The translations under genes and the position numbers were made by a program. From a bacterium (GTDB lineage: Bacteria; UBA9089; UBA9088; JAGUXG01), in the NCBI GenBank assembly GCA_043798435.1, contig JAZDOR010000047.1, positions 1 to 37,932 of the forward strand: a stretch of 37,932 bases of DNA. Direction: 5' to 3'. This document shows, one piece after another, positions 223 through 28,515 of this stretch (the stretch's first letter is position 1; each line of letters opens with the position of its first letter). Under the pieces are notes generated by a model. That model was not told the DNA's origin. It searched no databases and saw only the letters and a list, made by a program, of their open reading frames with translations.

Positions 223-1029
223 CTAATTTTCTTTTCTCCATTTCCCCATCTTCCCCTTTTCTATCTCATCCTTTATCCCTGGTGGGCATAACTCTAAATA
301 CTCACAATAGCCCTTCTCTTCAATTCGGGTAAACATCTCATAAGGCTCACCGCTCTTGACAATCACACCACCACACATTATATGAGCCAAATCAGGCTTC
401 AGGTAGGGCAGGATATGCCTGTAATGGGTGATGACTAAGCAGGCACAATGGTTCTCCCTGATATACTCACCCAAATCTCGACCAATCATTTTCAGGGAGT
501 CAATGTCAACACCAGAGTCTGGCTCGTCCAGGATCATTAACTTCGGCTTTTGGGCAAAGACCTGGGCTAATTCTGAACGCTTTCGCTCCCCTCCTGAAAA
601 GCCTACATTCACATCCCTGCCAGAAAACTGTTCTGGAGAGAGACCAACCTTTCGTAAGAGAGGAGTAGCAATCTTTTCTTCTGGTTCTTTGGATGGGTCC
701 CAAAGGGGCACACCCCCTGACAATCTAACTAAATCCCTTAGTTTCACCCCCCGTATTTCAGGTGGCGCCTGAAAGGAGATAGCCAAACCCAATCTCACCC
801 GTTGATGAATGGGCATAGAATTCAGTTCCTCTCCAGCAAACCTTATCGCACCCTGGACAATATTATAATGTGGCCAGCCCAGTAGGCTCATCATCAAACT
901 GCTCTTTCCAGAGCCATTTGGACCCATAATAATATGAACCCCTCCCTCTTCAATGCTTAGATTGACTCCATTCAACACACCTTTTCCCTCTACCTCTACA
1001 AACAAATTCTCTATCTCTAAAAGGTTCAT
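223..1029 (-). CDS. sufC: Fe-S cluster assembly ABC-type ATPase SufC/SmsC
   Basis: Walker A GPNGSGKS, signature VNVGFSGGERKRSELAQ, LDEPDSGVDIDSL, LVITH; Cys residues near the C-terminus. Confidence 0.85.
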   Translation of the reverse strand: MNLLEIENLFVEVEGKGVLNGVNLSIEEGGVHIIMGPNGSGKSSLMMSLLGWPHYNIVQGAIRFAGEELNSMPIHQRVRLGLAISFQAPPEIRGVKLRDLVRLSGGVPLWDPSKEPEEKIATPLLRKVGLSPEQFSGRDVNVGFSGGERKRSELAQVFAQKPKLMILDEPDSGVDIDSLKMIGRDLGEYIRENHCACLVITHYRHILPYLKPDLAHIMCGGVIVKSGEPYEMFTRIEEKGYCEYLELCPPGIKDEIEKGKMGKWRKEN

Positions 1030-1039
1030 CTTGGTAAAT

Positions 1040-1209
1040 AGAATACAGAATTCAGAATAAATAAATTATTTGACACAGATTTTCACAGATTTTCACAGAT
1101 TTTAGTGGTTAGAATAAAATCAGTGTTTGATCAGTGTAAATCAGTGTCTAAAAAAGGAAATTCCTATACAATCAAGTTCTTTCATTCTGACTCCTGAATT
1201 CTGACTTCT
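1040..1209. repeat. AGAATTC-armed palindrome with a nested CACAGAT-armed palindrome (1070..1151)
   Basis: Left arm AGAATACAGAATTCAGAAT, right arm ATTCTGACTCCTGAATTCTGACTTCT. Inner TTGACACAGATTTTCACAGATTTTCACAGAT ... ATCAGTGTTTGATCAGTGTAAATCAGTGTCTAA. Confidence 0.85.
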
Positions 1210-1975
1210 AACTTTTTATCAGCATTTCAGCTGCTTTTTTGCCAGAAAGGAGCATTCCGCCGAATATAGGCCCCATCCTTGGCCCTCCAAAAACAGCATT
1301 ACATGCCATTCCAGCCACATAAACCCCAGGGTATATCTCCTTTGTATTCTCCACAATGAGACGCTCACCTATCTCTGCCCACATAGGCTTTTCGCCCAAA
1401 ATGTCTCCTGTTTCTGTGAGAAGATTCTTCCCAATCTTTCTGGTGATTATATGAGCTATCTCAGCCGCATGTCCAGTAGCATCTATAATATATTTTGATC
1501 GAATTGTCAATGGGTCAACATGTAATTTAGCAATGTCAACCGCACTCCAGTTAAGAACAAGCCCCGTAACCCTTTCTTCACGAATCATCACATCCTCGCA
1601 AGAGATAAGATTATATATCCTTACCCCGGCCCTGATAGCTGAAAGGCAGAGGGCTGAAACCGTCTCTAAGGAATCTGTGACAAAATAGTTGGGTCGGTAT
1701 TCCTTATATCGTATCCCAAACTCATCTAAGATTGCCCTTGATTCCTCCTGAAAGACGCATTTGTTACACATCATCCCTCCACCCCACATTCCTCCACCAA
1801 TAGAGAGCTTTCTCTCAAAGAGGACCACCTTGAACCCCTTTTTGGCTAAGTAATAGCCGGCAGTAAGCCCAGCAGGACCTCCACCAACAATAGCCACATC
1901 GCTCTCTAAAGAGTCAATCATATCCTTTCCCCATTCCTCTAAAATAGCCCTTGAAATGACAATGTCATCTAACAT
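1208..1975 (-). CDS. thi4: Sulfide-dependent (His-type) adenosine diphosphate thiazole synthase
   Basis: GGGPAG dinucleotide motif, [15 protein letters not shown] (His where suicide Thi4 enzymes have Cys), [15 protein letters not shown]. Confidence 0.92.
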
Positions 1976-2001
1976 TTTATCCTCCTTCTTAAAAGATTTT
2001 T

Positions 2002-2217
2002 GTAACTATTCAGGTAGTAAGAAGACAGAATTCAGAATACAGAATTCAGGAGTCAGAATGAGAACGCTTACATGTAGTGTTCAAAACTTTGGGGTATGGT
2101 GATTCTTCAAAACTATTGATACTACTAAAAAAGGTCAGTAAATTATTAGAATCTTACTCTGATATTATTCTGAATTCTGAATTCTGACTCCTGAATTCTA
2201 ACTATCTAAACAGTTAC
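2002..2217. mobile_element. GTAA-ended MITE-like element carrying an AGAATTC palindrome
   Basis: Ends GTAACTATTCAGGTAG / CTATCTAAACAGTTAC; perfect 8-bp direct repeat AGATTTTT at 1994-2001 and 2218-2225. Confidence 0.88.
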
Positions 2218-2231
2218 AGATTTTTAACATA

Positions 2232-2636
2232 CTAAAAAAATATCTCAATCGCCTGATAGGGACATGCCTTCAGGCAGAGTCCACAGGCTGTGCAGTGCTC
2301 AGAGTCAAATGAGACCTTCATACTCTTTCTGTCAACAACCAATGCAGAAAATGGACAGATGGGAATGCAGGCTGTGCAATGGATGCATCTTTCTTCATTC
2401 CATCTCACATCAGAAGCTAAAGGTTGCACTACTACACCTAAATCTTTGAGGTAGGTCATACCCTTGTTTAGATTCTCATTCTCACCGCTTATCTCTACCA
2501 CCAACCTCCCTTCTTCATTCGGCTCTACCTTTGCACTCAGGATATTCACCATCAGGTCATATTCCTTAATCAAATGATAGGTGATTGGCTTTTCTACTGT
2601 CTCTTTCAGAAAGGTCAGGACCACTCGTTTTTTCAT
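2232..2636 (-). CDS. NIL domain + 2x[4Fe-4S] ferredoxin (MA1822/MJ0099-like)
   Basis: N-terminal NIL (YDLMVNILSAKV) plus two CxxCxxCxxxCP motifs; adjacent to a DUF39 gene. Confidence 0.88.
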   Translation of the reverse strand: MKKRVVLTFLKETVEKPITYHLIKEYDLMVNILSAKVEPNEEGRLVVEISGENENLNKGMTYLKDLGVVVQPLASDVRWNEERCIHCTACIPICPFSALVVDRKSMKVSFDSEHCTACGLCLKACPYQAIEIFF

Positions 2637-2656
2637 TATTTCTTACCTCCTACAGA

Positions 2657-2806
2657 ATAAGCGTTCAGGCAGTGTAACAAAAGGAGATAAGGAGATAAAA
2701 GGGATATGGAGATATTTTTAAGGGAAAAGAAAATAATTCATCTCCCCATCCCCCATATCTTCTTATCCCCCTTCTTACACTTTTTTTGTATAGCCTGAAC
2801 GGTTAC
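2657..2806. mobile_element. GTAAG-type MITE shell with GGAGATA arms and an empty centre
   Basis: (A)TAAGCGTTCAGGC-AGTGTAA...TTACAC...GCCTGAACGGTTAC with GGAGATAAGGAGATA / TATCTTCTTATCCCC arms. No clean TSD. Confidence 0.75.
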
Positions 2807-2813
2807 CAAATAA

Positions 2814-4007
2814 CTATGGTCTTTCATTTAGTGGCTTTATAGCGATATTAGCATCAATAGAAGGCACTCTTTGCACAGGTTCTGTCAAGAGAAAATCTCC
2901 TTTTAGTATCCATTCCTTCAGAATATTGGCTATCTCCTTTGCCTTGACATAACTTGAAAGCCCACCTGTAGGCACCTCTTTGCCATTTATCTTTATCTTT
3001 CCACTCTTCAACTGGGCATAGTTTACCTCAGTCAAAACATCTGGTTCCCTTTCTGGATAGGCATGGCTGTAATCTACCACTGGTGCAAATATCTCTTCAT
3101 CTCGAACTGCTGTATATCTACATATCTCCTCATTGAGCATAGGGATGGGAACACCAATCCCTACAGCAAGACTCACCCCATAACCTGTTATACTTGCACC
3201 TCGCAGCCAGGCGGGTTTCATCTGCTTCAGGTCTCCAATTACCGCTAAGGTTCCCCCAGACCTCTTTGGCACCTGGTTTTCTCCTCTAATGACATTTGGA
3301 TTGTGCTGTGTTCCCTGCCACGCAACATAGCCTATTCCACCACCCAAGAATATCCTTGTGCCGATGCCAATAATAGAATAGAGCGGGTCATTCAATAAAG
3401 GAGAAAGCTGTCCAGCACTGGAATAATTAGCGTTGCCAAGTCTTGGCAGTAAAGCCCCCAAATAGGTGTAAATAATCTTATCAGAAAGGTTTACGGCAAC
3501 ATTGTAGTTTTGATAAGCATTTCTGGGATTAAATAGCACAGCTTCATTTAGGTCAGAGATGTTAATCAAAGTGGTAAGCTCTTTTTTTGGATAGCAGTCT
3601 GTGCCATAAGAGACCACCTTCATTCTTATATCCTTTCCTGAAACCAGTTCTTCAATTATATGACCCCCACCATACCTGAATGCACCAGGATAGACAGTAT
3701 TAGCTGGATCATCCTCTGGGAGTTCTGTCGCCCCAAGATAGACATCTACTGCCGCTAAACCTGCATAAGCTGGAACATTGTTCAGCCATGCCTTCTGTGC
3801 CTTTATCCTTGGTTTAGAATGACCAAAGTTGAAATAGACTCCAGATGAGCACATGGGACCAAAGGTAGCCGTAGTTACAACATCAACCTCCTTTGCCACT
3901 TGAGACACACCCTTCTTATCCACCAGATCAATAATCTCTTCTGCTGTGACAACTACTGCTTCACCCTTCTTAATCTTCTCATTGATCTCTGCGATCGTCT
4001 TAGCCAT
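2814..4007 (-). CDS. DUF39 homocysteine biosynthesis protein (L-aspartate semialdehyde sulfurtransferase, MA1821/MJ0100-like; no CBS tail)
   Basis: KTIAEINEKIKKGEAVVVTAEE, VDVVTTATFGPMCSSG, YGTDCYP, NPRNAYQNY, SSAGQLSPLLNDP. Confidence 0.9.
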   Translation of the reverse strand: MAKTIAEINEKIKKGEAVVVTAEEIIDLVDKKGVSQVAKEVDVVTTATFGPMCSSGVYFNFGHSKPRIKAQKAWLNNVPAYAGLAAVDVYLGATELPEDDPANTVYPGAFRYGGGHIIEELVSGKDIRMKVVSYGTDCYPKKELTTLINISDLNEAVLFNPRNAYQNYNVAVNLSDKIIYTYLGALLPRLGNANYSSAGQLSPLLNDPLYSIIGIGTRIFLGGGIGYVAWQGTQHNPNVIRGENQVPKRSGGTLAVIGDLKQMKPAWLRGASITGYGVSLAVGIGVPIPMLNEEICRYTAVRDEEIFAPVVDYSHAYPEREPDVLTEVNYAQLKSGKIKINGKEVPTGGLSSYVKAKEIANILKEWILKGDFLLTEPVQRVPSIDANIAIKPLNERP

Positions 4008-4032
4008 ATCTAAACCTCCAGTATAAGTAACG

Positions 4033-5298
4033 CTATTTTAATAAATCGTTTAGTTCACAAGAAAGCAGGGCTGATTTATTGAGTATAATCTCTTCTTTCT
4101 GGTTGAAATTATCTGCGGTCATTCTGATGAGCTTGGTTGTAATGGTGTCACCGAGCATTATGCGATTCGTTTTTTTGAGATAGTTCTCGGTTTTCTGATA
4201 AAAAAGAGTAACATATTGCATCAATTTATCCTCCGGAGCAGGTTCCCAGCTGGTTTTTAATTCAACCAAGTCTTTAATTTTCTCGTCTACGGGTATTGAC
4301 AAATCTCCGTCTTGACGATCAATCCAGTAGTCACTGATAGAGTAAATAATTCTCACTGATTTTCCATTCTCTGTGTTGTATCGGCATATGAAAGAAAAAA
4401 TATCAGTGTGGAAGTCCTGATGGACATCCACATTTTTCAATGTAGTTACTGTATGAATCTTATATTCATCAAGAAGACGAAAATAGCTTTCTCGCCAATT
4501 TTTAAGCCAGTCTTCAATAAATGTCTGATTTATAAAAAGAGGTGTGAGATCCTGTTTAAGATTCGTGTCGTTCACCTTATTCATTTGTAAGGTAAGTTTG
4601 TCAAAAAGGGCTCGCTGGTCTTTTGCATCAACCCCTTTTGCAATAAGATATTCAAGATCAATCGCCACTTTTTTTCCCATATACCAGAGAAGATCATAGA
4701 TATCACGCCCCTTTTCTTCATATACCTCTTTACCTACTCCACGCTGTCCACGCAGGAAAATAGCAGCAATCTTGCTCGCCATAAGCGTAGGCATATTGTA
4801 GGTCTTAATCACAAATGAAAGCTGTCCGTAATTCATTGGTATTCGCTCAGTTACCGTTTTTGGAGCAGTAAAGTGATTGAGATCAATTTTGACATGCACC
4901 TGCTTTGACGGATGGCTGATACCTAACTCATCACATATATGGAAATTTAGACGCAATCCCCTGTTGTCTACTTTTATAGTAAGCAGTTTTGAATCGGTAC
5001 CATAGGTGCTTAAAAAATGTGCCTCTATTTCTTCTTTCAGCTCATTCAGAAATGCATCTGATATGGGGTGTGCAACTTCAAAATCTAAATCAACCGACAT
5101 ACGATCAAGCCCGTGGCATATGCGGAGCGCAGAACCGCCATACATAGTCCAATTGCTGTAATCTGGGTGATGATAAATAAAGTTAAGAACATAAAACTGT
5201 AACTCCTCTTTGAGCACATTACGCTGTCTCTCGACATCTACCTTCCCGGAAATGTCATCAAGCTTTCTTTTGAGTGCTATAAGAATCTGATTATTCAT
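4033..5298 (-). CDS. AbiEii-family nucleotidyltransferase toxin with C-terminal extension
   Basis: MYGGSALRICHGLDRMSVDLDF, ASKIAAIFLR, KGRDIYDLLWY; overlaps the upstream antitoxin gene. Confidence 0.88.
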   Translation of the reverse strand: MNNQILIALKRKLDDISGKVDVERQRNVLKEELQFYVLNFIYHHPDYSNWTMYGGSALRICHGLDRMSVDLDFEVAHPISDAFLNELKEEIEAHFLSTYGTDSKLLTIKVDNRGLRLNFHICDELGISHPSKQVHVKIDLNHFTAPKTVTERIPMNYGQLSFVIKTYNMPTLMASKIAAIFLRGQRGVGKEVYEEKGRDIYDLLWYMGKKVAIDLEYLIAKGVDAKDQRALFDKLTLQMNKVNDTNLKQDLTPLFINQTFIEDWLKNWRESYFRLLDEYKIHTVTTLKNVDVHQDFHTDIFSFICRYNTENGKSVRIIYSISDYWIDRQDGDLSIPVDEKIKDLVELKTSWEPAPEDKLMQYVTLFYQKTENYLKKTNRIMLGDTITTKLIRMTADNFNQKEEIILNKSALLSCELNDLLK

Positions 5299-5902
5299 AG
5301 TTTTTTATCATCATATAAAATTTTTCCTGCTCTTTCTCGCTCATCTCATCAATGTCAATACGTAACTCTGCAACCAGTGCTTTTATCTCCTCAAACTTTA
5401 TCCCACAAAATCGGTGTGTCTTGAAGTAAAGCAGATCGAAAAGTGCTTTTGCAGGAGATGCAATGAAGAAATCGAATCTCCCCATACCTAAAGAAAAATC
5501 TGAAAATAATTCTTTTTGAATAGATTGGTAAGAAAAATTACCTATCTTTGTCTTATACGCTCGGGTTACTTTTGGTGTAATTGACATTATTGTGTGTATT
5601 GCTTCAGTGGTCAGATCATAATATTGAAGAGCAGTCCACGAACTCACATATGACGGTGTGCGAAGGATATTAGCAAGATAGAATGAATAGGAGATGTCGC
5701 CTTTGTTTTTATTATAAAAATCAGCAGATACATACAATCCCTTTTTGATAGAGATGATTTCCTTGCGTTTTAATGACCGACTGATATAGGTATCAACTGT
5801 GGTGCTTTTAAGACCATACTGCTCGCTAAGCTGATATATAGCTTTCTTTTTGAAATATGGCTGAGATTTCAGTTGATTAAGTAATATCTCTCTGTATTTC
5901 AC
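5291..5902 (-). CDS. AbiEi-family antitoxin / transcriptional regulator
   Basis: N-terminal wHTH (IKKGLY), PSYVSSWTALQYYDL, IASPAKALFDLLY; translationally coupled to the AbiEii-like gene. Confidence 0.85.
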   Translation of the reverse strand: MKYREILLNQLKSQPYFKKKAIYQLSEQYGLKSTTVDTYISRSLKRKEIISIKKGLYVSADFYNKNKGDISYSFYLANILRTPSYVSSWTALQYYDLTTEAIHTIMSITPKVTRAYKTKIGNFSYQSIQKELFSDFSLGMGRFDFFIASPAKALFDLLYFKTHRFCGIKFEEIKALVAELRIDIDEMSEKEQEKFYMMIKNYE

Positions 5903-5943
5903 AATTGTGATGATATTGTATTAAATGTGAAATAAGATGTCAA
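5896..5943 (-). promoter_or_regulatory. sigma70-type promoter and candidate autoregulatory operator of the AbiE operon
   Basis: TTGACA (5943-5938), 17 bp, TACAAT (5920-5915); inverted repeat ATTTCACA...TGTGAAAT spans the -10 region. Confidence 0.65.
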
Positions 5944-5950
5944 GAAAAAT

Positions 5951-6041
5951 GTAACTACTCAGGTTGTCAAAGTTCAAGATTCATAGTTCATCGTTTAAGT
6001 CGCTTTCTGAAAACCGTGAAAGACTGAACCTGAATAGTTAC
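5951..6041. mobile_element. Short GTAA-ended MITE-like element with GTTCA-type arms
   Basis: GTAACTACTCAGGTT / AACCTGAATAGTTAC. No TSD. The right end contains the pscS stop codon. Confidence 0.75.
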
Positions 6042-7159
6042 CCTCCCTTCACTATCTCACTAAATGCAGAATATAGGTATTTAACCTGCTCCCAGGTTAA
6101 TCCATAAGTAGAAAGCTTAAACCAGTCAGTCTGACCCGGCTTTAAACCAGTTATTCCCCTTTTTTCCAACTCATAATAAAGAAAATAGCCTTTTTTACGA
6201 TGTTTTTCAGCAATCTTGCTTAAAGCAGGGGTTTTTAGTCGGATCAAATCATGGTCTTTTGGTCTCTTTCCAAGCTGTTCAATATCTCCGAGAGCCTCCA
6301 TCTGCTTCACAAACCAGCGGGCTTTTTCTACCTCTTCATTCCAATGTTTCACCCTCTCCTTTACATAAGGTAAGGCAGTAATAAGGCAGGCAGCAGCCCC
6401 TGAGCGGGCTGTGCAACCAAGAAGCTCAACATCCTTTTTGGGATACTTATCAGACTTTCTAAATAATCTCTCTGCCAATTTTTCAGTAGTGGCTAAAACC
6501 CCAATCGTCCCTGGGACACCAAACCCTTTATGGCAGGAGGTAACAATAAAATCAGCTAAAAGCTCCTTTCCCTTAACCTCCATCCTACCAGCAGTATAAG
6601 CACAGTTGAGGAGAAATGGCACATCAAGCCCCTGGCAGATTTCACCCACTTTTTTTGCATCAACTAAGTTGCCATAATCTCCATCAACATGGGTAAGCAA
6701 GGCAAGCTTTGGAGGTTTTTTTGTCTCTTCTAATACCTTCTCAAATGTCTTTTGATATGCCTCTGGTCGTATCTCGTATTCAGGATAGCCTGTATTTTCC
6801 ACCTCATAGATTTTGGCTCCGGCACGCTCTGCCGCCACATAGGTGCTATAATGCCGATTAGAATCAACTACTATTGAATCGCCGCTTGAAAGCAGGGTAT
6901 GCATCACGGCAAATTTTCCTTCACGGCAACCCAGGGTAAGCCGAGCCTCATCCATACCAAGAAACTGAGCTAAATCTTTGGTCAATTCGCAGATAGGAGG
7001 CTTTTCAATCAGATGAAGAACGCCTTTACAGTAGTCGCAAACAGAATATCCATCAACAAAACTCGCCGCCGTAATCCTTACCTCTGCATTCGTCCTTCCT
7101 CCAGTCTGAAGGGGATTCAAATTTATGCAGCACTCCTCCCTTGTTCTAATCAGGCTCAT
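6038..7159 (-). CDS. pscS: O-phosphoseryl-tRNA:Cys-tRNA synthase (SepCysS), PLP-dependent
   Basis: INLNPLQTGG, DGYSVCDYC (CxxC), HYSTYVAAERAG, THVDGDYGNL, SCHK (PLP Lys), ELLGC, KLSTYGL. Confidence 0.92.
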   Translation of the reverse strand: MSLIRTREECCINLNPLQTGGRTNAEVRITAASFVDGYSVCDYCKGVLHLIEKPPICELTKDLAQFLGMDEARLTLGCREGKFAVMHTLLSSGDSIVVDSNRHYSTYVAAERAGAKIYEVENTGYPEYEIRPEAYQKTFEKVLEETKKPPKLALLTHVDGDYGNLVDAKKVGEICQGLDVPFLLNCAYTAGRMEVKGKELLADFIVTSCHKGFGVPGTIGVLATTEKLAERLFRKSDKYPKKDVELLGCTARSGAAACLITALPYVKERVKHWNEEVEKARWFVKQMEALGDIEQLGKRPKDHDLIRLKTPALSKIAEKHRKKGYFLYYELEKRGITGLKPGQTDWFKLSTYGLTWEQVKYLYSAFSEIVKGG

Positions 7160-7323
7160 AGAGACCCCTCCAATTCATCTAATATCTCTTTTGCCTTCTG
7201 AATGCTTTGCTGTATCTGGTTCTTTTCTTCTGGACTAAACCTATGAACAGGTGCTGTCTGCCTGAGGATATCCCTTAACCTCTCCATCAATGCCAATATT
7301 TCAAATATCTTCTCTACCTTCAT
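7156..7323 (-). CDS. 55-aa helical protein, SepCysSn-like; not in the ORF track
   Basis: Manual translation MKVEKIFEILALMERLRDILRQTAPVHRFSPEEKNQIQQSIQKAKEILDELEGSL; fills the rrf2-pscS gap and ends in an ATGA overlap with the pscS start. Confidence 0.75.
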   Translation of the reverse strand: MKVEKIFEILALMERLRDILRQTAPVHRFSPEEKNQIQQSIQKAKEILDELEGSL

Positions 7324-7741
7324 TTAATTTTTTATCCAGTTTGACTAAATCAGAAAGCGTAGTTGAGCCCAAAACCTCAGCTATCTTCTTACCAACCTCC
7401 TCCCATAAAAGCCTTGTTGCACACCTTGATGCACGATGACACTCTTTCTTGCTTACCTCTGGATTGACACAGAACACCGGGTCAACATGGCCATCTAAGG
7501 CTTTAATTGTATCCAGGGCTGTAATCTCTGATGGCTCCTTCTTCAATCTATATCCACCAGAAGGACCCCTTTTGCTCTCTACAAGCCCAGCATTCTTCAG
7601 CCTGATCATAATCTGCTCCGCATACTGTGTGGTAATCTCCTGGCTCTTTGAAATTTGATGTATGGAGATAGTCTCTTTATTATGCAAAGCCAATTCAAGC
7701 ATCGCCCTTAAACCATATCTTCCCTTTGTTGAAAGCCACAT
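7301..7741 (-). CDS. Rrf2-family transcriptional regulator (CymR/IscR-like)
   Basis: LSTKGRYGLRAMLELA, SKRGPSGGY, three C-terminal Cys. Confidence 0.9.
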   Translation of the reverse strand: MWLSTKGRYGLRAMLELALHNKETISIHQISKSQEITTQYAEQIMIRLKNAGLVESKRGPSGGYRLKKEPSEITALDTIKALDGHVDPVFCVNPEVSKKECHRASRCATRLLWEEVGKKIAEVLGSTTLSDLVKLDKKLNEGREDI

Positions 7742-7758
7742 CTATCTTTGTTATCTTC

Positions 7759-7943
7759 GTAAGCGTTCAGCCTATTAATCAAAGAGTGTAAGAAGGGGGA
7801 TAAGAAGATAATGGGGAAACGAGAGAGAATCCAGAATACAGAATCCAGAATTCAGAATATTAAATTCTGTATTCTGACTCCTGAATTCTGACTTCTATTA
7901 ACCTTTCCCATATCCCCTTTTTTTACACTACCTGAACGGTTAC
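7759..7943. mobile_element. GTAAG-type MITE shell (GGAGATA arms) with nested AGAATTC palindrome (7826..7896)
   Basis: GTAAGCGTTCAG / CTGAACGGTTAC; flanks TTATCTTC (7751-7758) and TTATCTCC (7944-7951), a 7/8 match. Confidence 0.85.
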
Positions 7944-8076
7944 TTATCTCCCCAAATAAAGATATTTTACTAACTTTGAGCAATTTCATCAACAACTATC
8001 TATTCCTCATTTTGTATGTGTTTAGCTGTTTTGCAACCTCAGTATTTATAAGGGGTTATACACCATTATTTTCTGA

Positions 8077-8134
8077 TTTTGGAGTGCATTGACCATGTCA
8101 ATGCACGCATCGTCACTGACGATGCACTCCAAAA
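8077..8134. repeat. REP-like inverted doublet of GGAG-hairpin units
   Basis: TTTTGGAG-TGCATTGAC-CAT-GTCAATGCA followed by the inverted unit GCATCGTCA-C-TGACGATGCA-CTCCAAAA. Confidence 0.65.
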
Positions 8135-8138
8135 GGAG

Positions 8139-8813
8139 CTAAACACATACCTCATCTTTAATGGTCCCTGATATACACCCCGGCATATTCCTGGCAAAGG
8201 TGACAAGAAACAATAATCCCTTTTGAACATCAGGATCTCTTATGGCAGAAATAAGTTTTCTTAAGCCTGGTTTAGGTGGCTCTTTCGCAAATTGCTGCAT
8301 GGTTTTGACTGCACATTCTCCCATTCCTTGTATCATGCACTGCGTCTCTTTGCCAAGAAGAATATCAATCTCTTTAGCCTCAAAGCTGGCCAAGAAATTC
8401 AGGAGTTTATTGAAGGCACCAATATTCTCTCCAGTCTTTTGGATAAGCTGTAGCGTTTCATCCTTTTCAAAGGATTCTCTGAGCATTTTTATGCTGGGTG
8501 CTGTCTCCTTAGAAATCTTTTCAATAGCTGGATATAGGTCTTCAGCTAAACCCTTTGCAGCCACCATTACATCTAAAAGTTTTATAAAGGTTGGTATATT
8601 CTCCCCAACCTTCTTAATCAAGGTTAAGGTCTCATCCCTTTCAAATCTTTCTCGCATCTCTCTAATTGTTGTCTGCGTCTCCTTAGAGACCTTTTCAAAA
8701 CCAGGAGCCAAATCTGCTATAAGGTTTTCAATGGTGTTAAGCCTATTGTATATCTCATCTATCTGGACAGCCATTCTCTCATGACCATTCGTGGGTAACG
8801 ATTTATTTACCAT
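8139..8813 (-). CDS. DUF1641-family helical protein
   Basis: C-terminal GLRKLISAIRDPDVQKGLLFL; internal repeat FERDETLTLI / FEKDETLQLI; follows an SQR-like gene. Confidence 0.75.
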   Translation of the reverse strand: MVNKSLPTNGHERMAVQIDEIYNRLNTIENLIADLAPGFEKVSKETQTTIREMRERFERDETLTLIKKVGENIPTFIKLLDVMVAAKGLAEDLYPAIEKISKETAPSIKMLRESFEKDETLQLIQKTGENIGAFNKLLNFLASFEAKEIDILLGKETQCMIQGMGECAVKTMQQFAKEPPKPGLRKLISAIRDPDVQKGLLFLVTFARNMPGCISGTIKDEVCV

Positions 8814-8815
8814 CT

Positions 8816-9979
8816 TTACATCAACCCCCTAAGCATAAGATTCCAGTAAAGTGGTCTTAGCATGTGAACCTTAATTACCCAACTGAAGTAGCTTTCTATA
8901 GCTGGAGATATGCTTTCAGTATAGTTAAACTCTGCAAACAAAGCCCTCTTATACTTAGTTGGCATAGGGCATATTACCTCTCCATCATAAGTTGCCGTTG
9001 GCTCTTCACCCTTTAGAAGCGATTTCATTCGCTCTGTTAAAACCTTAGCCTGCTTTCTTATCCCTGAAGCTGTCTTTGATGTTGGAAAATCAGTGGCATC
9101 TCCAATTCCATATATATTGTTATAAGCAGTATGCACCATCCGATACTTATCACAGGTTACCCATCCGGCTGCATTTCCTATGCCCTTTGATTGCTCAATC
9201 ATAGGTTGGCCCTCGTGTGGCGGAGTAATACAGAGCAAATCAAACTTGACTGGTTCCTGTCCCTTTGTAAAGGATTTTATAACCCCTTGTTCATAATCAA
9301 CCTCTGATGGATTAAAATTTGGTATTGCCTCTATTCCTCTTTCCTTGAAAATGCTATTTAGTTTAGCGGCATAAGGCTGCCTGGAAAAGACATCGGGCAT
9401 TGAGGTGGTAAATACAAATCTGCATTTGTCCCTTATTCCTCTGCGTCTCATCTCATCTTCTGCTAACATAATAAATTTTGCAGGAGCAGCCGGGCATTTT
9501 ATAGGCATCTCACAGATAGAGGAGACTATCGTTCCACCCTCAAATTTCTTTAATGCCTCTCTGAGTTGTATAGCTCTATCAAGGGTATAAAACATAAAGA
9601 CATTTTTGCCCTTTTCAAGCCCTTCCTTCATCCCATCAGGTGCATCATAAACCAATTTAGCACCAGTAGCAATGACGAGATAATCATAAGAGATTTCGCC
9701 GTGCTTTGAAGTAGCCACTTTATTATTTTGTGGGTCTATTTTTGTAGCCTCGTCAGCGATGAGGTTAATTCCCTCATAAAATAAGTCTTTTACTGGCCTC
9801 GTAAGATTTTCTGGCGTATCCAGATCAAAGACTACCAATGTAAACGCTGGCTGGTAAAAATGTGTATCCCTCTTTTCGACAACAGTAATCTTTACTGTAT
9901 CCTCGCTAAACTCCCTTCTCATTCTGTTAGCAAACATCACCCCAGCACTCCCTCCTCCCAAAATTACAACACTCTTCAT
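8816..9979 (-). CDS. sqr: Sulfide:quinone oxidoreductase-like flavoprotein (type III-like)
   Basis: ILGGGSAG, HFYQPAF, YDYLVIATGA, PIKCPAAP, GIGDATDFPTSKTAS, YDGEVIC. Confidence 0.78.
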   Translation of the reverse strand: MKSVVILGGGSAGVMFANRMRREFSEDTVKITVVEKRDTHFYQPAFTLVVFDLDTPENLTRPVKDLFYEGINLIADEATKIDPQNNKVATSKHGEISYDYLVIATGAKLVYDAPDGMKEGLEKGKNVFMFYTLDRAIQLREALKKFEGGTIVSSICEMPIKCPAAPAKFIMLAEDEMRRRGIRDKCRFVFTTSMPDVFSRQPYAAKLNSIFKERGIEAIPNFNPSEVDYEQGVIKSFTKGQEPVKFDLLCITPPHEGQPMIEQSKGIGNAAGWVTCDKYRMVHTAYNNIYGIGDATDFPTSKTASGIRKQAKVLTERMKSLLKGEEPTATYDGEVICPMPTKYKRALFAEFNYTESISPAIESYFSWVIKVHMLRPLYWNLMLRGLM

Positions 9980-10121
9980 CTGTTTTTACCTCCTTCTGGT
10001 TCGTTTATACTTACGAACCTCATCATTCTCAACCCAAATCTCACCCAACATTCTCTTTTTATAATATACACCACCTCCTTCTCTAATCTTGACAAAAATA
10101 TATATGAGTATTTTAATCAAC

Positions 10122-10150
10122 ATTATAATTAAAAAAATATAATCTGTCAA
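10122..10150 (-). promoter_or_regulatory. Consensus sigma70 promoter for the sqr-DUF1641 operon
   Basis: TTGACA (10150-10145), 17 bp, TATAAT (10127-10122). Confidence 0.75.
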
Positions 10151-10172
10151 GCAAAATAAATATTAAGACTAC

Positions 10173-10319
10173 GTAAGCGTTCAGCCGTCAGCCATCAGCA
10201 GTCAGCAAAGACCATAAAATCAAGACAAAAGAGGTTTTCCTAACTTCACGGCTTCCTGCTCTTTGTGCTGTAATACCTTGTAAAAGCTGAAAGCTGTCCG
10301 CTGATAGCTGAACGCTTAC
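10173..10319. mobile_element. GTAAG-type MITE with TCAGC-heptamer arms
   Basis: Perfect 13-bp TIR GTAAGCGTTCAGC / GCTGAACGCTTAC; perfect TSD AAGACTAC (10165-10172, 10320-10327). Confidence 0.92.
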
Positions 10320-10323
10320 AAGA

Positions 10324-11031
10324 CTACTCAACCAATCTGAATCCCTTTCCATATAAGCCAAGGCAGTCATCCTTAATAATAACGGCTCCTCTTATATCCT
10401 GGATATTTGTTATCTCTTTGATTGCCGTATCTATATCGCTTTTTTCTAAGATGAGGTTTCCTATCCTTGTTGCCCAGGCATCGGCGAGGGAGCCTGATTT
10501 TGCCAGCACAAGGCTCACATCAGCCTTTCCAAGGCTAATTGACCTTCCCATTACACCTGAGGATGTGCAGACAGAGATGGGCATCTCCTCTGGTTCTATA
10601 GCTATAGCCATCTTATTAAAAAGAGGGGATTTGGTATAGATGCCAACATTCCTTGCTTTCTTGCTGTCTATAAAAATGTCGCCACCATTTTCTACGATGA
10701 CCTCCTCAGAGAATAGCTTCAGCCTTCTTGCCAGCCTCTCGGCTATTGCCCCAGCTACAGCCGCCATAGGACCAACCCTTGCAGAAAAACCCGCTTCTGC
10801 CATCTCTTTGACAATTGACGGTGCATTACTTTTAGGTTTATAAGGCTCAAATGTAGTAAGATATGTAGGGTCATTAACAATATAATCCTCTATATCCCTT
10901 CTGATGTCTATAAGTATCTCTTCTGCCACATCTGCGAGGTCTTTTTCTGCACTAATCAAAATGTCAGACTCTTTTACCTTTATCCGAAAAGTGAAGAGGT
11001 CATTGCCTTTAATCAGCTTGCGATACCTCAT
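10324..11031 (-). CDS. UPF0280 / COG2122 ApbE-like protein (MA1715-like)
   Basis: VGPMAAVAGAIA, EVIVENGGDIF, SVCTSSG, SISLGKAD, LADAWAT. Confidence 0.88.
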   Translation of the reverse strand: MRYRKLIKGNDLFTFRIKVKESDILISAEKDLADVAEEILIDIRRDIEDYIVNDPTYLTTFEPYKPKSNAPSIVKEMAEAGFSARVGPMAAVAGAIAERLARRLKLFSEEVIVENGGDIFIDSKKARNVGIYTKSPLFNKMAIAIEPEEMPISVCTSSGVMGRSISLGKADVSLVLAKSGSLADAWATRIGNLILEKSDIDTAIKEITNIQDIRGAVIIKDDCLGLYGKGFRLVE

Positions 11032-11205
11032 ATCCTGATAGTCTACTGAACTTTTGCAAATTTACGCAAGTAGCAACTGAAATACCACCCCCAGAGAAGA
11101 TGACTATCAATTTTTGATGCAAAAATCCTTGAAAATAGCTTAAACTTTACCTTATATTTCTGCTACTGTAAGAAATATCTTGAATTATATAGGAATTTCC
11201 TTTTT

Positions 11206-11280
11206 TGGACTTTAGATGAACTTTAGATTTTCAAGATTTATAAAATATTATCCTGTAAATCTGCGAAAATCTGCGTCCCA
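11206..11280. repeat. Degenerate GACGCAGAT-family palindrome
   Basis: GGACTTTAGATGAACTTTAGATTTTCAAGAT ... ATCCTGTAAATCTGCGAAAATCTGCGTCCC; same family as 32230..32316. Confidence 0.55.
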
Positions 11281-12400: not shown

Positions 12401-12767
12401 TTACTCAAAATCTTAGGGAGAATATTTAGCCACAGAGCTCACAGAGAGCACAGAGGAATTAGCCACGAATGCACACGAATTAACACTAATAATTCATTCG
12501 TGCCTATTCGTAATATTCGTGTTTATTCGTGGTTTATTCATCTTTCTTTGTGACCTCTAAAGTTCTCTGTGGCGTAACTATTTACCCAAGTGAAGCAGAA
12601 GACAATTGTTCACCTTTAGGGCACCGCTGAGGACGCAGAGAATTTACAAAATTTTTAAGTTTTTATTTCTCTGTGCTCTCTGCGAGCTCTGCGGTTAATC
12701 TCTTCTTCAGATGAGTAAAGTGTTACTCTGTGGCTTTTCCACAATCCTAAATTTTATGAGTAGTTAC
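12397..12767. mobile_element. Composite GTAA-ended MITE: CACAGAG palindrome, nested CACGAAT palindrome and a nested second MITE
   Basis: GTAATTACTCAAAA / TTTTATGAGTAGTTAC; perfect TSD GACGGAGG (12389-12396, 12768-12775). Confidence 0.9.
12574..12726. mobile_element. Nested GTAAC MITE (CGCAGAG arms)
   Basis: GTAACTATTTACCCAAGTGAAG / CTTCAGATGAGTAAAGTGTTAC; perfect TSD TCTGTGGC (12566-12573, 12727-12734); closely similar inverted copy at 24202..24351. Confidence 0.9.
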
Positions 12768-12952
12768 GACGGAGGTTAATAAGATGGGACTGGTTCGCTT
12801 TGGTGTGTCGTTGGAAGATGTGCTTTTAGTAAACTTTGATGATTATATCAAGAAAAAGAGTTATCAGAGACGGAGGTTAATAAGATGGGACTGGTTCGCT
12901 TTGGTGTGTCGTTGGAAGATGTGCTTTTAGTAAACTTTGATGATTATATCAA
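12768..12952 (+). repeat. Direct duplication of the nikR RBS and 5' end
   Basis: 12768..12851 is repeated at 12869..12952 (84 bp, period 101). Confidence 0.9.
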
Positions 12953-13322
12953 AGAAAAGGGGTATCCTACAAGGTCTAAAGCCATCTCCGACCTGATAAG
13001 AGAGGCTTTAGTCAAAGAAGAGTGGCGAGGGCAAGAGAATGTTGCTGGAGCTGTCACCTTAATCTATGACCATCATAGACGGGAATTGGTAAATAAGCTG
13101 ACTGATATCCAGCACGATTTTTATAAAATAATCATCTCCTCCCAGCACGCCCATTTAGACCATAATAACTGTTTGGAAGTAGTTGTGGTGAAAGGAGATC
13201 CAGAAGAGATTAAGAAGCTCGCCAATAGGCTAAAGTCAACTAAGGGTGTCAAGCACTCTGTTTTGACTATGACTACAATTGGAAAGGAGGCTGGAAAAGA
13301 AATAAGTAAAATTGTTAGCTAA
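12885..13322 (+). CDS. nikR: Nickel-responsive regulator NikR
   Basis: RFGVSL ribbon-helix-helix, TRSKAISDLIR, YDHH, QHAHLDHNNCLE. Confidence 0.93.
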   Translation: MGLVRFGVSLEDVLLVNFDDYIKEKGYPTRSKAISDLIREALVKEEWRGQENVAGAVTLIYDHHRRELVNKLTDIQHDFYKIIISSQHAHLDHNNCLEVVVVKGDPEEIKKLANRLKSTKGVKHSVLTMTTIGKEAGKEISKIVS

Positions 13323-14233: not shown

Positions 14234-14328
14234 AGTCATTAGTCAATAGTCATTAGTAGGAGAAATTTTTTACTGATGACAAGTGACCAGTAACTAATGA
14301 CCATAAATTTTGTGTCTCTGTGGCTAAA
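14234..14328. repeat. AGTCATT-heptamer palindrome plus an orphan CACAGAG right arm
   Basis: AGTCATTAGTCAATAGTCATTAGT ... ACTGATGACAAGTGACCAGTAACTAATGAC, then TGTGTCTCTGTGGCTAAA. Confidence 0.75.
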
Positions 14329-14333: not shown

Positions 14334-15551
14334 TTATTTCCACTTATCTCTTCTTCTAATAATTTCACCCATTCTTGCCCCTTTCCTGTTTTGTTTTCCA
14401 AGATAGGTAGAAATATTTTTTCTTTCCTCTTCCTCAAAGACACTTTTTGCTGACAGGACCATTCTTTTATTTTCTGAGTCAATATCTATAATTTTTACAG
14501 AAATTTTATTTCCTTCCTTAAGATGGGCAACATCCTCCATCTCTCGCTTTGGAAGAAAACCATCAACCCCATCCGCCACCTCAACAAAAGCATAATTTGG
14601 AAAGACCTTTACCACTTTACCTTCCACAGTAGAACCAAGCGAGAGTGTCTCTCTCATTTTTTCCCAGGGAGAGGGAAGCGTATCTTTCAAGCTCAAAGAA
14701 ATCTTCCTATTTGTCTTATCTACACTCAGCACTATAACATCTACAATATCTCCTACCCTGACGACATCTTTGGGATGTCGTATCCTTCTAAAAGAAAGCT
14801 CAGAGATAGGAATCAAGCCCTCTATAGCACCAATGGAGACAAATGCACCAAACCCTACTACTTTGCATATCTCTCCTTTCAGCCTTTGTCCCTCTTTTAT
14901 CTCCTCAAGAAATACATCTTGTCTTTTTCTTATATCCTCTTCCTCTGCCTCTTTGATAGATAAAATAACCCGTCGAGCCTTTCTGTCAAACTCAATAATT
15001 TTTAATTTTAGCGTTTTTTCCAAATATGAGTCAAGGTTTCTTACCTTCTCTATTCTTGTGTGTGAAGCTGGAATAAAGCCTTCAATGCCAACATCAACAA
15101 GAAGCCCTCCCTTTATCTGAGAAATTATCCTTCCTTCAATCAATACATCAGCCTTAAAAGCCTCTGTTATTTTATCAAGTGCGTTTTTGAGGTCGCACCT
15201 CTTTTTTGAGAGCACCATATTCCCAAATTTATCATCAATTGAAAGGATAATTACATCTATCTCTTCTCCTATCTTTACAACCTCTTCTGGTGAGTCAAAG
15301 CGTGACAAAGAAAGCTCATTCAGGGGAACAATTCCTTCTTGTTTTCCTCCAACAGAGACAAGAACACCCTCTTCTACTATTCCCACGACCATTCCAGAAA
15401 GAATATTCCCTTGCTTTATCTTTTTAAGGTGTTTTTCAAAAAGGGGCTCTAACCTTTCTTCCTCTGGTTTTTCTGGTTTCTCTGTTAGAAGGGCAGGCGT
15501 AGATATTTTCTGCTCTAAATCCTTTATAGCACGGGCAATAACATCATCCAT
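14334..15551 (-). CDS. rpsA: 30S ribosomal protein S1 (four S1 repeats)
   Basis: IKGGLLVDVGIEGFIPASH, FGAFVSIGAIEGLIPISELS. Start placed at the non-overlapping ATG (15551); the ORF track start is 15584. Confidence 0.88.
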   Translation of the reverse strand: MDDVIARAIKDLEQKISTPALLTEKPEKPEEERLEPLFEKHLKKIKQGNILSGMVVGIVEEGVLVSVGGKQEGIVPLNELSLSRFDSPEEVVKIGEEIDVIILSIDDKFGNMVLSKKRCDLKNALDKITEAFKADVLIEGRIISQIKGGLLVDVGIEGFIPASHTRIEKVRNLDSYLEKTLKLKIIEFDRKARRVILSIKEAEEEDIRKRQDVFLEEIKEGQRLKGEICKVVGFGAFVSIGAIEGLIPISELSFRRIRHPKDVVRVGDIVDVIVLSVDKTNRKISLSLKDTLPSPWEKMRETLSLGSTVEGKVVKVFPNYAFVEVADGVDGFLPKREMEDVAHLKEGNKISVKIIDIDSENKRMVLSAKSVFEEEERKNISTYLGKQNRKGARMGEIIRRRDKWK

Positions 15552-15562
15552 TTTATTAGTTT

Positions 15563-15979
15563 TTAATACAGATCCATAACCCACTTTCCATCGTGTTCGG
15601 GGTTTGGAATTATCCTCTGTGATTTTACATCAACAACAAGATCCATAGTTTCTAATACCAGATATCCTATTAGAGGTGGTGTAGTTGCATCGTTCTCCAT
15701 CACCTGCATTTCAATATCCCTATCCTGGATAATGATAATAGCTCCATAAAAGATACGTCGCTCTACCCGTCCATTTGCAGTAGTTACTCCTCGTGTATGT
15801 GAATACAATAGCCCTAATCTCTCAATTACATCTGGCGGCAAACATAAATATGCCGCACCGGTATCTACTAAAGCCTCAATTTCAACGGTTCTTATTTCAT
15901 CCTCGGGAGCCTTCCCCTCAGAATGCAAGAAAACATCACCAAAATTCTTCACTATAACCTTTTCAACAGTTTTTCCCAT
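15563..15979 (-). CDS. Clan AA (retropepsin-like) aspartic protease
   Basis: ALVDTGA motif and PLIGYLVLETMDLVVD; GAGGT RBS before the ATG at 15979. Confidence 0.85.
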   Translation of the reverse strand: MGKTVEKVIVKNFGDVFLHSEGKAPEDEIRTVEIEALVDTGAAYLCLPPDVIERLGLLYSHTRGVTTANGRVERRIFYGAIIIIQDRDIEMQVMENDATTPPLIGYLVLETMDLVVDVKSQRIIPNPEHDGKWVMDLY

Positions 15980-16061: not shown

Positions 16062-16107
16062 CTAAGAGTAGGCTAAGGATGAAAATCAAAAATAAAAAAT
16101 CAAATAT

Positions 16108-17113: not shown

Positions 17114-17542
17114 CTAATTCTGAACCTTTCTATATAATTCAATCTCTTTGAAAAACTGCTGAAAAATAGGTTTTGCTTTCTCAGCCAAAGGTATCAGAAG
17201 TTCTGGTTCCAACATAAAGCCGTATCCATGTATAAAAAAGTGGCGGAATCTCAGGTAATCCCTTAATTGATCTGCCAATGATTCACTTACAATACCTTGA
17301 TTTATGGCCGCCATAAGAAGTTCCTTGTGCCAGCTATCTGATAGTGCAATATGAATCCCATGATGCTTCAAGATATGTTTCAGGATATTTTCAACCCCTC
17401 CGTAAAGATTGTGTAAATATGTAGAGATACCAGCATAGTCAAGTTCTTCCTTTAATTCCCGTAATAGACCTTTAGATAACAGCTCAATTGTTCGCTCCAT
17501 AGATTGTTTTTCAGCAAGCTGGTATTCCTCATATTCACCCAT
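17114..17542 (-). CDS. HEPN ribonuclease toxin (HepT-like)
   Basis: LHNLYGGVENIL, WHKELL, RHFFIHGY (RX4H); likely start MGEYEEY at 17542 overlaps the MNT stop. Confidence 0.85.
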   Translation of the reverse strand: MGEYEEYQLAEKQSMERTIELLSKGLLRELKEELDYAGISTYLHNLYGGVENILKHILKHHGIHIALSDSWHKELLMAAINQGIVSESLADQLRDYLRFRHFFIHGYGFMLEPELLIPLAEKAKPIFQQFFKEIELYRKVQN

Positions 17543-17804
17543 AAATATGTCTCCCGTACTTGCGGATGATCGGAGCAAAGGGATTATTGGAGTCAAGGTC
17601 CACCACATCAACCGATTTTGATAGTGCCCAGTCAAGTTTACCTGTCAGTTCGAAAAAACGCTCTCTGGGAATACCCTCAATACCAAGATCTATGTCACTA
17701 ACTTCGCTTGATTCCAAAAGACTGGAACCAAAAAGATAAACAGAACGGATGCCATATCTTTGTGCCCACTCTTGTATTGCCTTTAGATCTGATGTTGACA
17801 CCAT
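17535..17804 (-). CDS. Minimal nucleotidyltransferase (MNT) antitoxin
   Basis: YLFGSS...SDIDLGIEG...VDVVDL. Confidence 0.88.
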   Translation of the reverse strand: MVSTSDLKAIQEWAQRYGIRSVYLFGSSLLESSEVSDIDLGIEGIPRERFFELTGKLDWALSKSVDVVDLDSNNPFAPIIRKYGRHIYG

Positions 17805-20150: not shown

Positions 20151-20162
20151 CTGTTAATAGTG

Positions 20163-20255
20163 TATGGTTTATGGTTTATGGTTTATAGTTTATGGTTTAT
20201 GGTTTATGGTTTATAGTTTATAGACTATCAACTATAAACTATCAACTATAGACTA
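20163..20255. repeat. TTTATGG/TTTATAG-heptamer palindrome
   Basis: About 9 units of TTTAT(G/A)G followed by ACTATCAACTATAAACTATCAACTATAGACTAT, which includes the DUF1015 stop codon. Confidence 0.85.
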
Positions 20256-28512: not shown

Positions 28513-28515
28513 CGT

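Follow-up and report, generated by a model that had tools for sequence, protein, structure and literature searches.

This analysis concerns the 37,932-nucleotide contig JAZDOR010000047.1 of the bacterial assembly GCA_043798435.1, taken over its whole length (hereafter the window), and the gene cluster at its positions 223-11031. An earlier note on this DNA had described the cluster as a methanogen-type set for sulfide assimilation that includes SepCysS, the tRNA-dependent cysteine synthase. Gene identities were established from an open reading frame (ORF) listing of the window and from Pfam and NCBIfam profile scans. Every gene named earlier was recovered within 223-11031, all co-oriented on the minus strand and with strong family matches, and curated cutoffs were reached or exceeded by SepCysS, Thi4, SufC, HcyBio, NIL/Fer4, Rrf2 and DUF1641. 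What had been listed as a small ORF is present as well (7156-7323), and its identity, which had been missed, is SepCysSn, a conserved gene for a predicted adaptor that precedes SepCysS. The features of the cluster are as follows.

10324-11031, minus strand: UPF0280/COG2122-like protein (ApbE-related), 235 aa; NCBIfam PRK04334.1-3, E 3.8e-76, 255.8 bits, cutoff 271
10173-10319: palindromic heptamer-repeat element between the UPF0280 and SQR-like genes; inverted repeat I7, 34-nt arms, 79% complementary
8816-9979, minus strand: SQR-like (sulfide:quinone oxidoreductase-like) flavoprotein, 387 aa; Pyr_redox_2 69.5 bits; NF049943 336.5 bits, cutoff 525
8139-8813, minus strand: DUF1641 protein, 224 aa; PF07849 45.1 bits, cutoff 21
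7301-7741, minus strand: Rrf2-family regulator, 146 aa; PF02082 136.4 bits
7156-7323, minus strand: SepCysSn, predicted adaptor peptide, 55 aa; homologs 5′ of SepCysS; SepCysE match
6038-7159, minus strand: SepCysS, 373 aa; TIGR02539 equivalog 512.1 bits, cutoff 365.25
5291-5902, minus strand: AbiEi; PADLOC 115.8 bits
4033-5298, minus strand: AbiEii; PADLOC 106.9 bits; PF08843 81.5 bits
2814-4007, minus strand: DUF39/HcyBio (COG1900) homocysteine-synthesis protein, 397 aa; PF01837 521.2 bits, profile positions 1-349/349
2232-2636, minus strand: protein with a NIL domain and two-[4Fe-4S] ferredoxin (NIL-ferredoxin), 134 aa; PF09383 NIL 68.2 bits; Fer4 in two stretches
1208-1975, minus strand: Thi4 of the non-cysteine (His152) type, 255 aa; TIGR00292 'sulfide-dependent ADP-thiazole synthase' 334.6 bits, cutoff 148
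223-1029, minus strand: SufC-type Fe-S assembly ATPase, 268 aa; TIGR01978 234 bits, cutoff 212.8

SepCysS and its small partner gene

The window SepCysS can be aligned over its entire length with the enzymes of M. jannaschii (3wkr_A, E 5e-114) and A. fulgidus (2e7i_A, E 5e-107), both of known structure. Seven residues, C41, C44, R79, H103, Y104, K211 and C249, are invariant across 18 bacterial-type sequences and map, in the alignment to 2e7i, to A. fulgidus positions 39, 42, 79, 103, 104, 209 and 247. We take C41, C44 and C249 to be the persulfide or sulfur-relay cysteines and K211 to be the lysine that binds pyridoxal phosphate (PLP); R79, H103 and Y104 presumably form the site for the phosphate of phosphoserine. 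Since these phosphate-site residues are kept, phosphoserine would still be the substrate of the enzyme.

A tree was computed from the window protein and those of 80 SepCysS loci, 16 of which make up the bacterial clade and 8 the sub-clade of the window (quick IQ-TREE run, SH-aLRT support only, midpoint root). The window sequence falls in a clade of nine rows, the other rows being all bacterial (SH-aLRT 98). The sister of this clade (95) consists of eight bacterial rows, among them ADurb.Bin236, and the 17 bacterial rows are jointly sister (99) to sequences of Methanococcales and Methanobacteriaceae. Nearest relatives are metagenome-assembled genomes (MAGs) deposited as 'bacterium', with UBA9089 among them; UBA9089 is described as a groundwater phylum, whose namesake is included in these nearest MAGs (PMC11484514). 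One row stands apart: SepCysS of L038, labelled Candidatus Bipolaricaulota, is near-identical to that of the Methanobacteriaceae MAG L045 (branch lengths 0 and 0.015), and L038 is probably an archaeal contig placed in the wrong bin. The earlier statement that SepCysS is rare in bacteria is fair, though this bacterial clade is already in print, as are bacterial SepRS/SepCysS and bacterial SepCysSn (PMC5424206; PMC8762117). These two papers also report SepRS fused to a ThrRS editing domain in 'Desantisbacteria-like' bacteria and in a Nitrospirae MAG, and the first of them already describes co-occurrence of SepCysS with methanogen-type homocysteine genes in bacteria.

SepCysSn overlaps the Rrf2 gene by 23 bp and the SepCysS gene by 4 bp. 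Apart from the window, 37 of the 80 loci have a homolog directly 5′ of SepCysS, as a profile built from 22 copies showed. Its distribution follows the clades: 14/16 in the bacterial clade, 23/23 in Altiarchaeales/Methanofastidiosa/Bathyarchaeia and 0/41 in Methanobacteriaceae/Methanococcales (class I methanogens). Residues E14, R17, R21 and P25 are invariant. When the profile was compared to PDB, the top match was SepCysE (MJ1481), residues 64-97 (E 0.0041, 20.3 bits), a weak match, yet the first of 177,635 sequences. The matched segment falls inside domain 35-101 of SepCysE, which binds the SepCysS dimer (PMC5688128). An atlas search returned a best score of 0.81, to small archaeal hypothetical proteins, too low to count. 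Within the literature searched, the term SepCysSn occurs only in PMC5424206 and PMC8762117.

Two known systems can be compared. The closer one is ADurb.Bin236 ('Desantisbacteria-like'; Mukai et al. 2017, 2022; PMC5424206, PMC8762117), where a small SepCysE-like peptide gene lies directly before SepCysS on a bacterial contig and forms no operon with SepRS, as in the window; this peptide was named SepCysSn (PMC5424206). Identity between the two genomes is 55% for SepCysS and 43% for SepCysSn (L025 in our set), and they stand in sister clades. Neighbours differ. In seven of the eight loci of the ADurb.Bin236-type sub-clade (L012, L014, L018, L024, L025, L031, L009), SepCysSn-SepCysS is oriented divergently from genes for PALP and/or Cys_Met_Meta_PP enzymes, apparently of transsulfuration, and queH lies 3′ of SepCysS in L024, L025 and L031, whereas in the window SepCysSn-SepCysS is joined to Rrf2, DUF39, NIL-ferredoxin, Thi4 and SufC.

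The second one is the transsulfursome of class I methanogens (SepRS-SepCysE-SepCysS; 3wkr, 5x6b). Its SepCysS is about 50% identical to that of the window and has the same catalytic residues, and SepCysSn of the window matches the part of SepCysE that binds SepCysS (PMC5688128). In contrast, the 55-aa SepCysSn is devoid of both the N-helix, the SepRS-binding part according to PMC8762117, and the tRNA-binding C-terminal domain (111-213), so that a bridged three-protein complex is not expected.

The conserved core and its additions

Proteins of the window were searched against the 80 loci by tblastn. Three of the eight loci of its sub-clade (L005, L006, L007) show linkage of the core; the remaining five, on short contigs of 4-12 kb, have different genes around SepCysS. 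SepCysS, DUF39, NIL-ferredoxin and Thi4 are adjacent in all three, SufC too only in L005 and L006. The order is SepCysS-HcyBio-NILFd-Thi4-SufC in L006, SufC-SufBD-Fer4-Thi4-x-HcyBio-NILFd-SepCysSn-SepCysS-MnmA in L005 and Thi4-HcyBio-NILFd-SepCysSn-SepCysS in L007. L006 is the closest relative found (SepCysS 85% and HcyBio 89% identical) and shares the order of the five genes, whose identities are 81-89%. Linkage of a sulfide-using biosynthetic core, as claimed earlier, is thus borne out by related MAGs, but the remainder of the proposed cluster is not: UPF0280, SQR-like, DUF1641 and Rrf2 genes were found near SepCysS in none of the 16 bacterial-clade loci, and UPF0280 in a single one of the 80, the archaeal L061. 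A conserved core, extended by genes specific to the lineage, describes the locus best.

Other genes adjoin SepCysS in the sub-clade. mnmA, for a tRNA 2-thiouridylase, lies directly 3′ of SepCysS in three of the eight nearest loci (L001:2856-3923, L002:1683-2747, L005:8773-9882), and a ThiI/NFACT-R_2 protein is encoded at the same place in L003 (L003:11385-12365).

Of the three protein types of the homocysteine pathway, known from M. acetivorans (MA1821, MA1822, MA1715) and D. vulgaris (DvMF_1464, _0262, _0044; PMC5764234), the window encodes DUF39 and NIL-ferredoxin, by adjacent genes that are kept as a pair in L005-L007, and a putative member of the third, COG2122. D. vulgaris has no SepCysS, and its three genes lie scattered (PMC5764234); those of the window are aligned in one row that also includes SepCysS and Thi4, with the COG2122-like gene 6 kb away from DUF39, at a position that is not conserved.

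This last gene deserves a closer description. Its product matches PDB entry 2o34, a 'hypothetical protein' (E 1.6e-31), and its nearest atlas clusters are PF27030 AbpE_bact (score 0.96); no match was obtained in Pfam as scanned. We take the family of PRK04334, 2o34 and AbpE_bact to be COG2122. COG2122 has been described as distantly related to ApbE (PMC5764234), with which this equation is consistent.

Thi4 has its best PDB matches in 7rk0 (E 4e-91) and in 4y4n of M. jannaschii (E 2.7e-70). As proposed earlier, it is of the His type: His152 ('AKLHVDP') aligns with the Cys of plant THI1 (1rp0, 'TQSCMDP'), which we assume to be the sulfur donor, and with the His of the M. jannaschii enzyme. It thus resembles the non-cysteine Thi4 4y4n at the position of the plant suicide cysteine; 7rk0, although the best-matching structure, has Met rather than His at that column, and the window enzyme is bacterial. 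SufC of the window stands without SufB/D, whereas L005 has SufC-SufBD.

Among the additions, the SQR-like gene and the DUF1641 gene form a pair, the latter beginning 3 bp past the stop of the former. Among PDB entries, the SQR-like protein comes closest to human sulfide:quinone oxidoreductase (SQOR; E 3.5e-68 over residues 4-386). The active-site motifs 'pvkCagap' and 'ytsCplv' of human SQOR are matched by Cys162 and Cys337, which are invariant in 32 homologs; against NF049943 (type III, selenoprotein subtype) the protein scores below the curated cutoff (336.5 vs 525 bits). The DUF1641 protein consists of two helical repeats (internal repeat D7, alignment A4) followed by the C-terminal DUF1641 domain, and the best PDB match of its profile is ForE1/YjgD (8rqz, E 1.9e-4). 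The homolog lists of the two proteins share seven longest-contig values (17281, 6526, 14987, 14833, 55042, 7800 and 3492), and only one of these, 17,281 bp, belonging to a 97-98% identical strain, also occurs in the SepCysS homolog list. SQR-like and DUF1641 genes therefore seem to be conserved as a separate pair, a view drawn from the shared longest-contig values and not from DNA.

DUF1641 proteins act as scaffold, membrane anchor and quinone conduit of the Huc, ForCE and Ndh-Ncp complexes (PMC13524794). The pair of the window resembles these complexes (Huc-HucM, ForCE, Ndh-Ncp) in that its DUF1641 protein has a helical N-terminal region and is encoded beside a flavoprotein of the NDH-2/SQR superfamily. 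It differs from them since its partner is of SQR type with two redox cysteines, not an NDH-2, hydrogenase or formate dehydrogenase; moreover its host is not a member of Bacillota, and Sqr figures only as an outgroup in PMC13524794. No SQR-DUF1641 complex is described in the portions of the DUF1641 literature consulted. By analogy, the pair would most likely act as a quinone-linked sulfide oxidase with DUF1641 as scaffold and quinone conduit.

Regulatory sequences, repeats and the remaining window

The Rrf2 protein carries three clustered cysteines (Cys91, Cys101, Cys107) and reaches the cutoff of none of the named subfamily models (IscR, CymR, NsrR, RirA). The AbiE pair aside, only Rrf2, SepCysSn and SepCysS are joined by gene overlaps. 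A sigma-70-like consensus promoter (TTGACA-17-TATAAT, 12/12) lies before the SQR-like gene at 10150-10122 on the minus strand; it is a pattern match only, and promoter-like sites in the region are no more numerous than in shuffled sequences. The idea of one Rrf2-controlled locus is not upheld: promoter-like sites are separate, the AbiE module intervenes, spacers measure 177-397 bp and Rrf2 adjoins SepCysS in 0/16 loci. No sign of a common Rrf2 regulon was found in the sequence of the region. Because UPF0280, SQR-like/DUF1641 and Rrf2 genes are absent from the SepCysS surroundings in all 16, a single locus controlled by Rrf2 and fed by SQR is not supported.

The 18-mer AAAAAGGAAATTCCTATA is found exactly at 1151-1168 and 11188-11205, inverted, at both cluster ends, and with one mismatch at 22340-22357, before the waaA operon (3 sites vs 0.22 expected). 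It runs into a TATA(C/T)AAT box and may be a promoter element. As an Rrf2 operator it was rejected, since it recurs outside the cluster (22340) and its palindromic core is not enriched. An intrinsic terminator 3′ of DUF1641 was likewise rejected: the sequence is strongly folded (z -5.68) but has no U-run.

Between SepCysS and DUF39 lies an AbiEi/AbiEii pair (type IV toxin-antitoxin, abortive infection) of 1.9 kb (4033-5902), its two genes overlapping by 8 bp. It splits the cluster and, like the repeat elements of the spacers described below, is not mentioned in the earlier note. G+C content is 0.346 and 0.382 for the AbiE genes and 0.40-0.456 for their neighbours. A promoter-like site precedes AbiEi (5943-5915, 11/12 match), and L006 is devoid of the AbiE genes, its SepCysS-HcyBio gap being 30 bp. 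The lower G+C, the promoter-like site and the absence from L006 indicate that the pair is an insertion; no target-site duplication flanking it was seen by eye. A second toxin-antitoxin-like pair is located at 17114-17804, where a HepT-like gene (PF20797, 71 bits) overlaps an 89-aa ORF matching PADLOC PDC-S09. In L006, Schlafen/AlbA_2 and NACHT-HEAT genes lie 5′ of SepCysS on the opposite strand (L006:2629-6982), where the window has Rrf2 and SepCysSn; the locus seems to draw defence-type genes in both genomes.

Spacers of the cluster (177-397 bp, compared to 0-30 bp in L006) are filled with palindromic elements made of heptamer repeats. The element at 10173-10319 consists of period-7 arrays and has the end motif GTAAGCGTTCAG exactly at both ends. 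A 60-aa ORF inside it (10188-10370) has no family in Pfam or NCBIfam and, given this and its location, is probably not a real gene. Window-wide, period-7 arrays occur at 1022-1214, 2001-2218, 7822-7897, 10173-10319, 14234-14257, 16082-16104, 20153-20257, 28515-28682 and 29377-29447. They are often inverted pairs that would fold as long hairpins, and the unit varies by site, for example TGAGTTT x17.9 and then TAAACTC. The motif GTAAGCGTTCAG, with up to two mismatches, occurs 11 times in the window vs 1.7 expected. The heptamer arrays look like members of one family of small palindromic repeats.

Other repeats were noticed as well. Phased 10-bp repeats, CACAGATTTT / AAATCTGTGT, are intergenic at 1074-1147, 11257-11275, 12431-12539, 32234-32252, 37036-37065 and 37841-37860, and may be binding sites or bent DNA. 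A 101-bp tandem duplication at 12768-12958 (1.9 copies, 98% matches) spans the nikR start codon (12885), so that the nikR 5′ end is present twice. The ORF at 24399-25241 corresponds to the C-terminal 280 aa only of an acetate-CoA ligase (model positions 373-645/649) and looks like a truncated gene remnant.

The remaining window carries ordinary bacterial housekeeping genes (pfk, nikR, ispE, rpsA, folD, waaA, dxr, nadA, hisI), together with two-component kinases and a FadL/PorV-like outer-membrane protein. Three of them had been named before and were all located.

22982-24172: waaA; best lipid IV(A) Kdo transferase model 269.2 bits, below its cutoff of 438
26156-27310: dxr
14334-15584: rpsA

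The contig is bacterial, as had been claimed. The host cell is probably diderm, which waaA and the outer-membrane protein fit, both scoring below curated cutoffs. Neither tRNA genes nor Rfam matches were found in the window.

Sulfide use and competing readings

We consider it probable that the cluster is real and chromosomal, that it belongs to an uncultured anaerobe, probably a diderm, and that it encodes enzymes which put sulfide directly into biomolecules. The activities are inferred from gene identities, conserved residues, synteny and phylogeny; for the core, this functional reading is well backed by homology, residues, gene order and published genetics (PMC5764234). SepCysSn-SepCysS would convert phosphoseryl-tRNA(Cys) to Cys-tRNA(Cys), with the Sep-tRNA made by a putative SepRS encoded elsewhere. 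DUF39 and NIL-ferredoxin would form homocysteine from aspartate semialdehyde and sulfide, a step that the COG2122-like protein may assist, as in Desulfovibrio and Methanosarcina; in D. vulgaris, homocysteine synthesis genetically needs DUF39, NIL/ferredoxin and COG2122 (PMC5764234). The His-type Thi4 would use free sulfide for the thiazole of thiamin, and SufC would serve Fe-S assembly. To these the lineage would have added the three-cysteine Rrf2, predicted to be translationally coupled to SepCysSn-SepCysS and a candidate regulator, the separately promoted SQR-like/DUF1641 pair, which would oxidize sulfide with quinone as acceptor, and a putatively selfish AbiE toxin-antitoxin insertion.

Several observations weigh against this reading, first of all those on SepRS. 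The earlier note had said that SepRS is not in the window, and none was found there in the Pfam and NCBIfam scans. The 16 bacterial-clade loci contain 160 ORFs of at least 70 aa, of which 131 were scanned in Pfam: 65/85 and 49/75 in first passes, then 17 more, one of them giant and most of the others short or located at contig ends. The 29 others comprise 28 homologs of cluster genes (tblastn) and one antisense ORF over SepCysSn of L009. PheT was the only member of the aminoacyl-tRNA-synthetase families among the 131, without any SepRS. Fifteen family-less flank ORFs, rescanned in NCBIfam, gave no SepRS either, a very divergent form being conceivable (e.g. L003:2056-4062, L025:31-1488, L034:7219-8586). 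Nor was SepRS seen among the 48 ORFs of 480-640 aa from the other 63 of the 80 loci. A tRNA-Cys gene near SepCysS was found in 0/16 bacterial loci; the single 'tRNA-Arg' call, in L009, lies within a POR gene. The bacterial norm, according to PMC5424206, is a SepRS-SepCysS operon, from which the arrangement in the window differs. A SepRS elsewhere in the genome is favoured by the retained phosphoserine site and adaptor, by the SepRS homolog of ADurb.Bin236 in the sister clade and by the statement that complete genomes without SepRS yielded no SepCysS (both PMC5424206).

The other points concern individual genes. SepCysSn was not found in the DNA of L004 and L006 examined. The UPF0280 family score is just below the NCBIfam cutoff (255.8 vs 271). 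No SufB/SufD partner of SufC is encoded in the window, whose minus strand at 1-222 is free of ORFs of at least 25 aa. Finally, the window and the near-identical strain are alone in having UPF0280, Rrf2 and SQR-like/DUF1641 genes beside SepCysS.

A first alternative, suggested by the earlier note, makes the SQR-like/DUF1641 pair and the COG2122-like protein a persulfide supply, in which sulfide is turned into sulfane sulfur that loads the cysteines of SepCysS and DUF39. These genes adjoin the cluster in the same orientation and both SQR redox cysteines are conserved; PMC5764234 cites persulfidic forms of SepCysS and DUF39 and the proposal that COG2122 takes part in making them. We nevertheless judge this unlikely, since SQR-like, DUF1641 and UPF0280 genes occur near SepCysS in none of the 16 bacterial-clade loci and the SQR pair has a consensus promoter of its own. 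In addition, the next homologs of SQR and DUF1641 (84-86% and 57-60%) come from assemblies with longest contigs of 6,526 and 14,987 bp, neither of which is in the SepCysS list, and such homologs are widespread in Nitrospirota-type MAGs, without evidence there for SepCysS. A quinone-linked oxidase would suit detoxification or energy conservation at least equally well.

A bolder form of the same proposal would see in SQR-DUF1641 a new class of DUF1641-scaffolded enzyme, a sulfane-sulfur generator loading the persulfide cysteines of SepCysS and DUF39 via the COG2122-like protein. To this we attach only a slight probability. If true, a bacterial persulfide relay would feed tRNA-dependent cysteine synthesis, with an SQR mounted on a quinone-conducting tube. 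The SQR-DUF1641 pairing is the least explored part of the locus and lies outside the recent work on DUF1641 quinone conduits.

According to a second alternative, SepCysS without SepRS is a sulfur-relay protein, a PLP enzyme of cysteine-desulfurase fold whose persulfide cysteines would pass sulfur derived from sulfide on to tRNA-thiolation or Fe-S enzymes such as MnmA, ThiI-like proteins, NadA or NifU. Such a role stays conceivable given mnmA directly 3′ of SepCysS in three of the eight nearest loci (L001, L002, L005), and the ThiI/NFACT-R_2 gene of L003, NadA 5′ of SepCysS in L004, and an FdhD-NadA fusion and NifU 3′ of it in L002 point in the same direction, as does the failure to see SepRS or tRNA-Cys near any bacterial-clade SepCysS. 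The SepCysS-MnmA adjacency echoes YrvO-MnmA, the desulfurase/thiouridylase pair of Bacillus. However, mnmA does not adjoin SepCysS in the window. The presumed phosphate-site residues R79, H103 and Y104 are invariant in 18/18 sequences, which is unexpected if phosphoserine were no longer the substrate, and the SepCysE-like adaptor is kept in 14 of the 16 bacterial loci. Bacterial SepCysS of other clades showed the canonical activity when assayed in vitro, a SepRS homolog is reported for ADurb.Bin236 besides its SepCysSn-SepCysS operon, and no SepCysS was reported in complete genomes without SepRS (all PMC5424206). We therefore hold the relay to be improbable.

That the cluster is an assembly artefact, in which archaeal DNA was fused onto a bacterial contig, is highly improbable: the nearest non-bacterial relatives of SepCysS and SepCysSn are archaeal, and L038 illustrates that mis-binning happens, but G+C is even along the window, the same heptamer-repeat elements are found inside and outside the cluster, L006 repeats five genes in the same order, 15 other bacterial-clade loci have typical bacterial genes next to SepCysS (among them MnmA, SecA, PheT, ribosomal proteins and LptC/D), with L007 showing only cluster genes and a radical-SAM ORF, and the 97-98% identical homologs of SepCysS, SQR-like protein and DUF1641 each come with a longest contig of 17,281 bp, which suggests an independent assembly of the same arrangement.

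A chromosomal cluster for direct use of sulfide is thus the reading that we retain. It is a system of known kind, and the window provides a further well-preserved example with extra neighbours, which does not overturn current knowledge. tRNA-dependent cysteine synthesis with a SepCysSn adaptor would thereby be extended to another uncultured anaerobic bacterial lineage, and the compact gene set could serve to test whether SepCysSn alone suffices as the bacterial adaptor. In some of these bacteria four predicted sulfide-using routes, to Cys-tRNA, homocysteine, thiazole and Fe-S clusters, are physically linked, and this linkage supports the view that they may belong together physiologically, as a package suited to waters that are sulfidic and anoxic.

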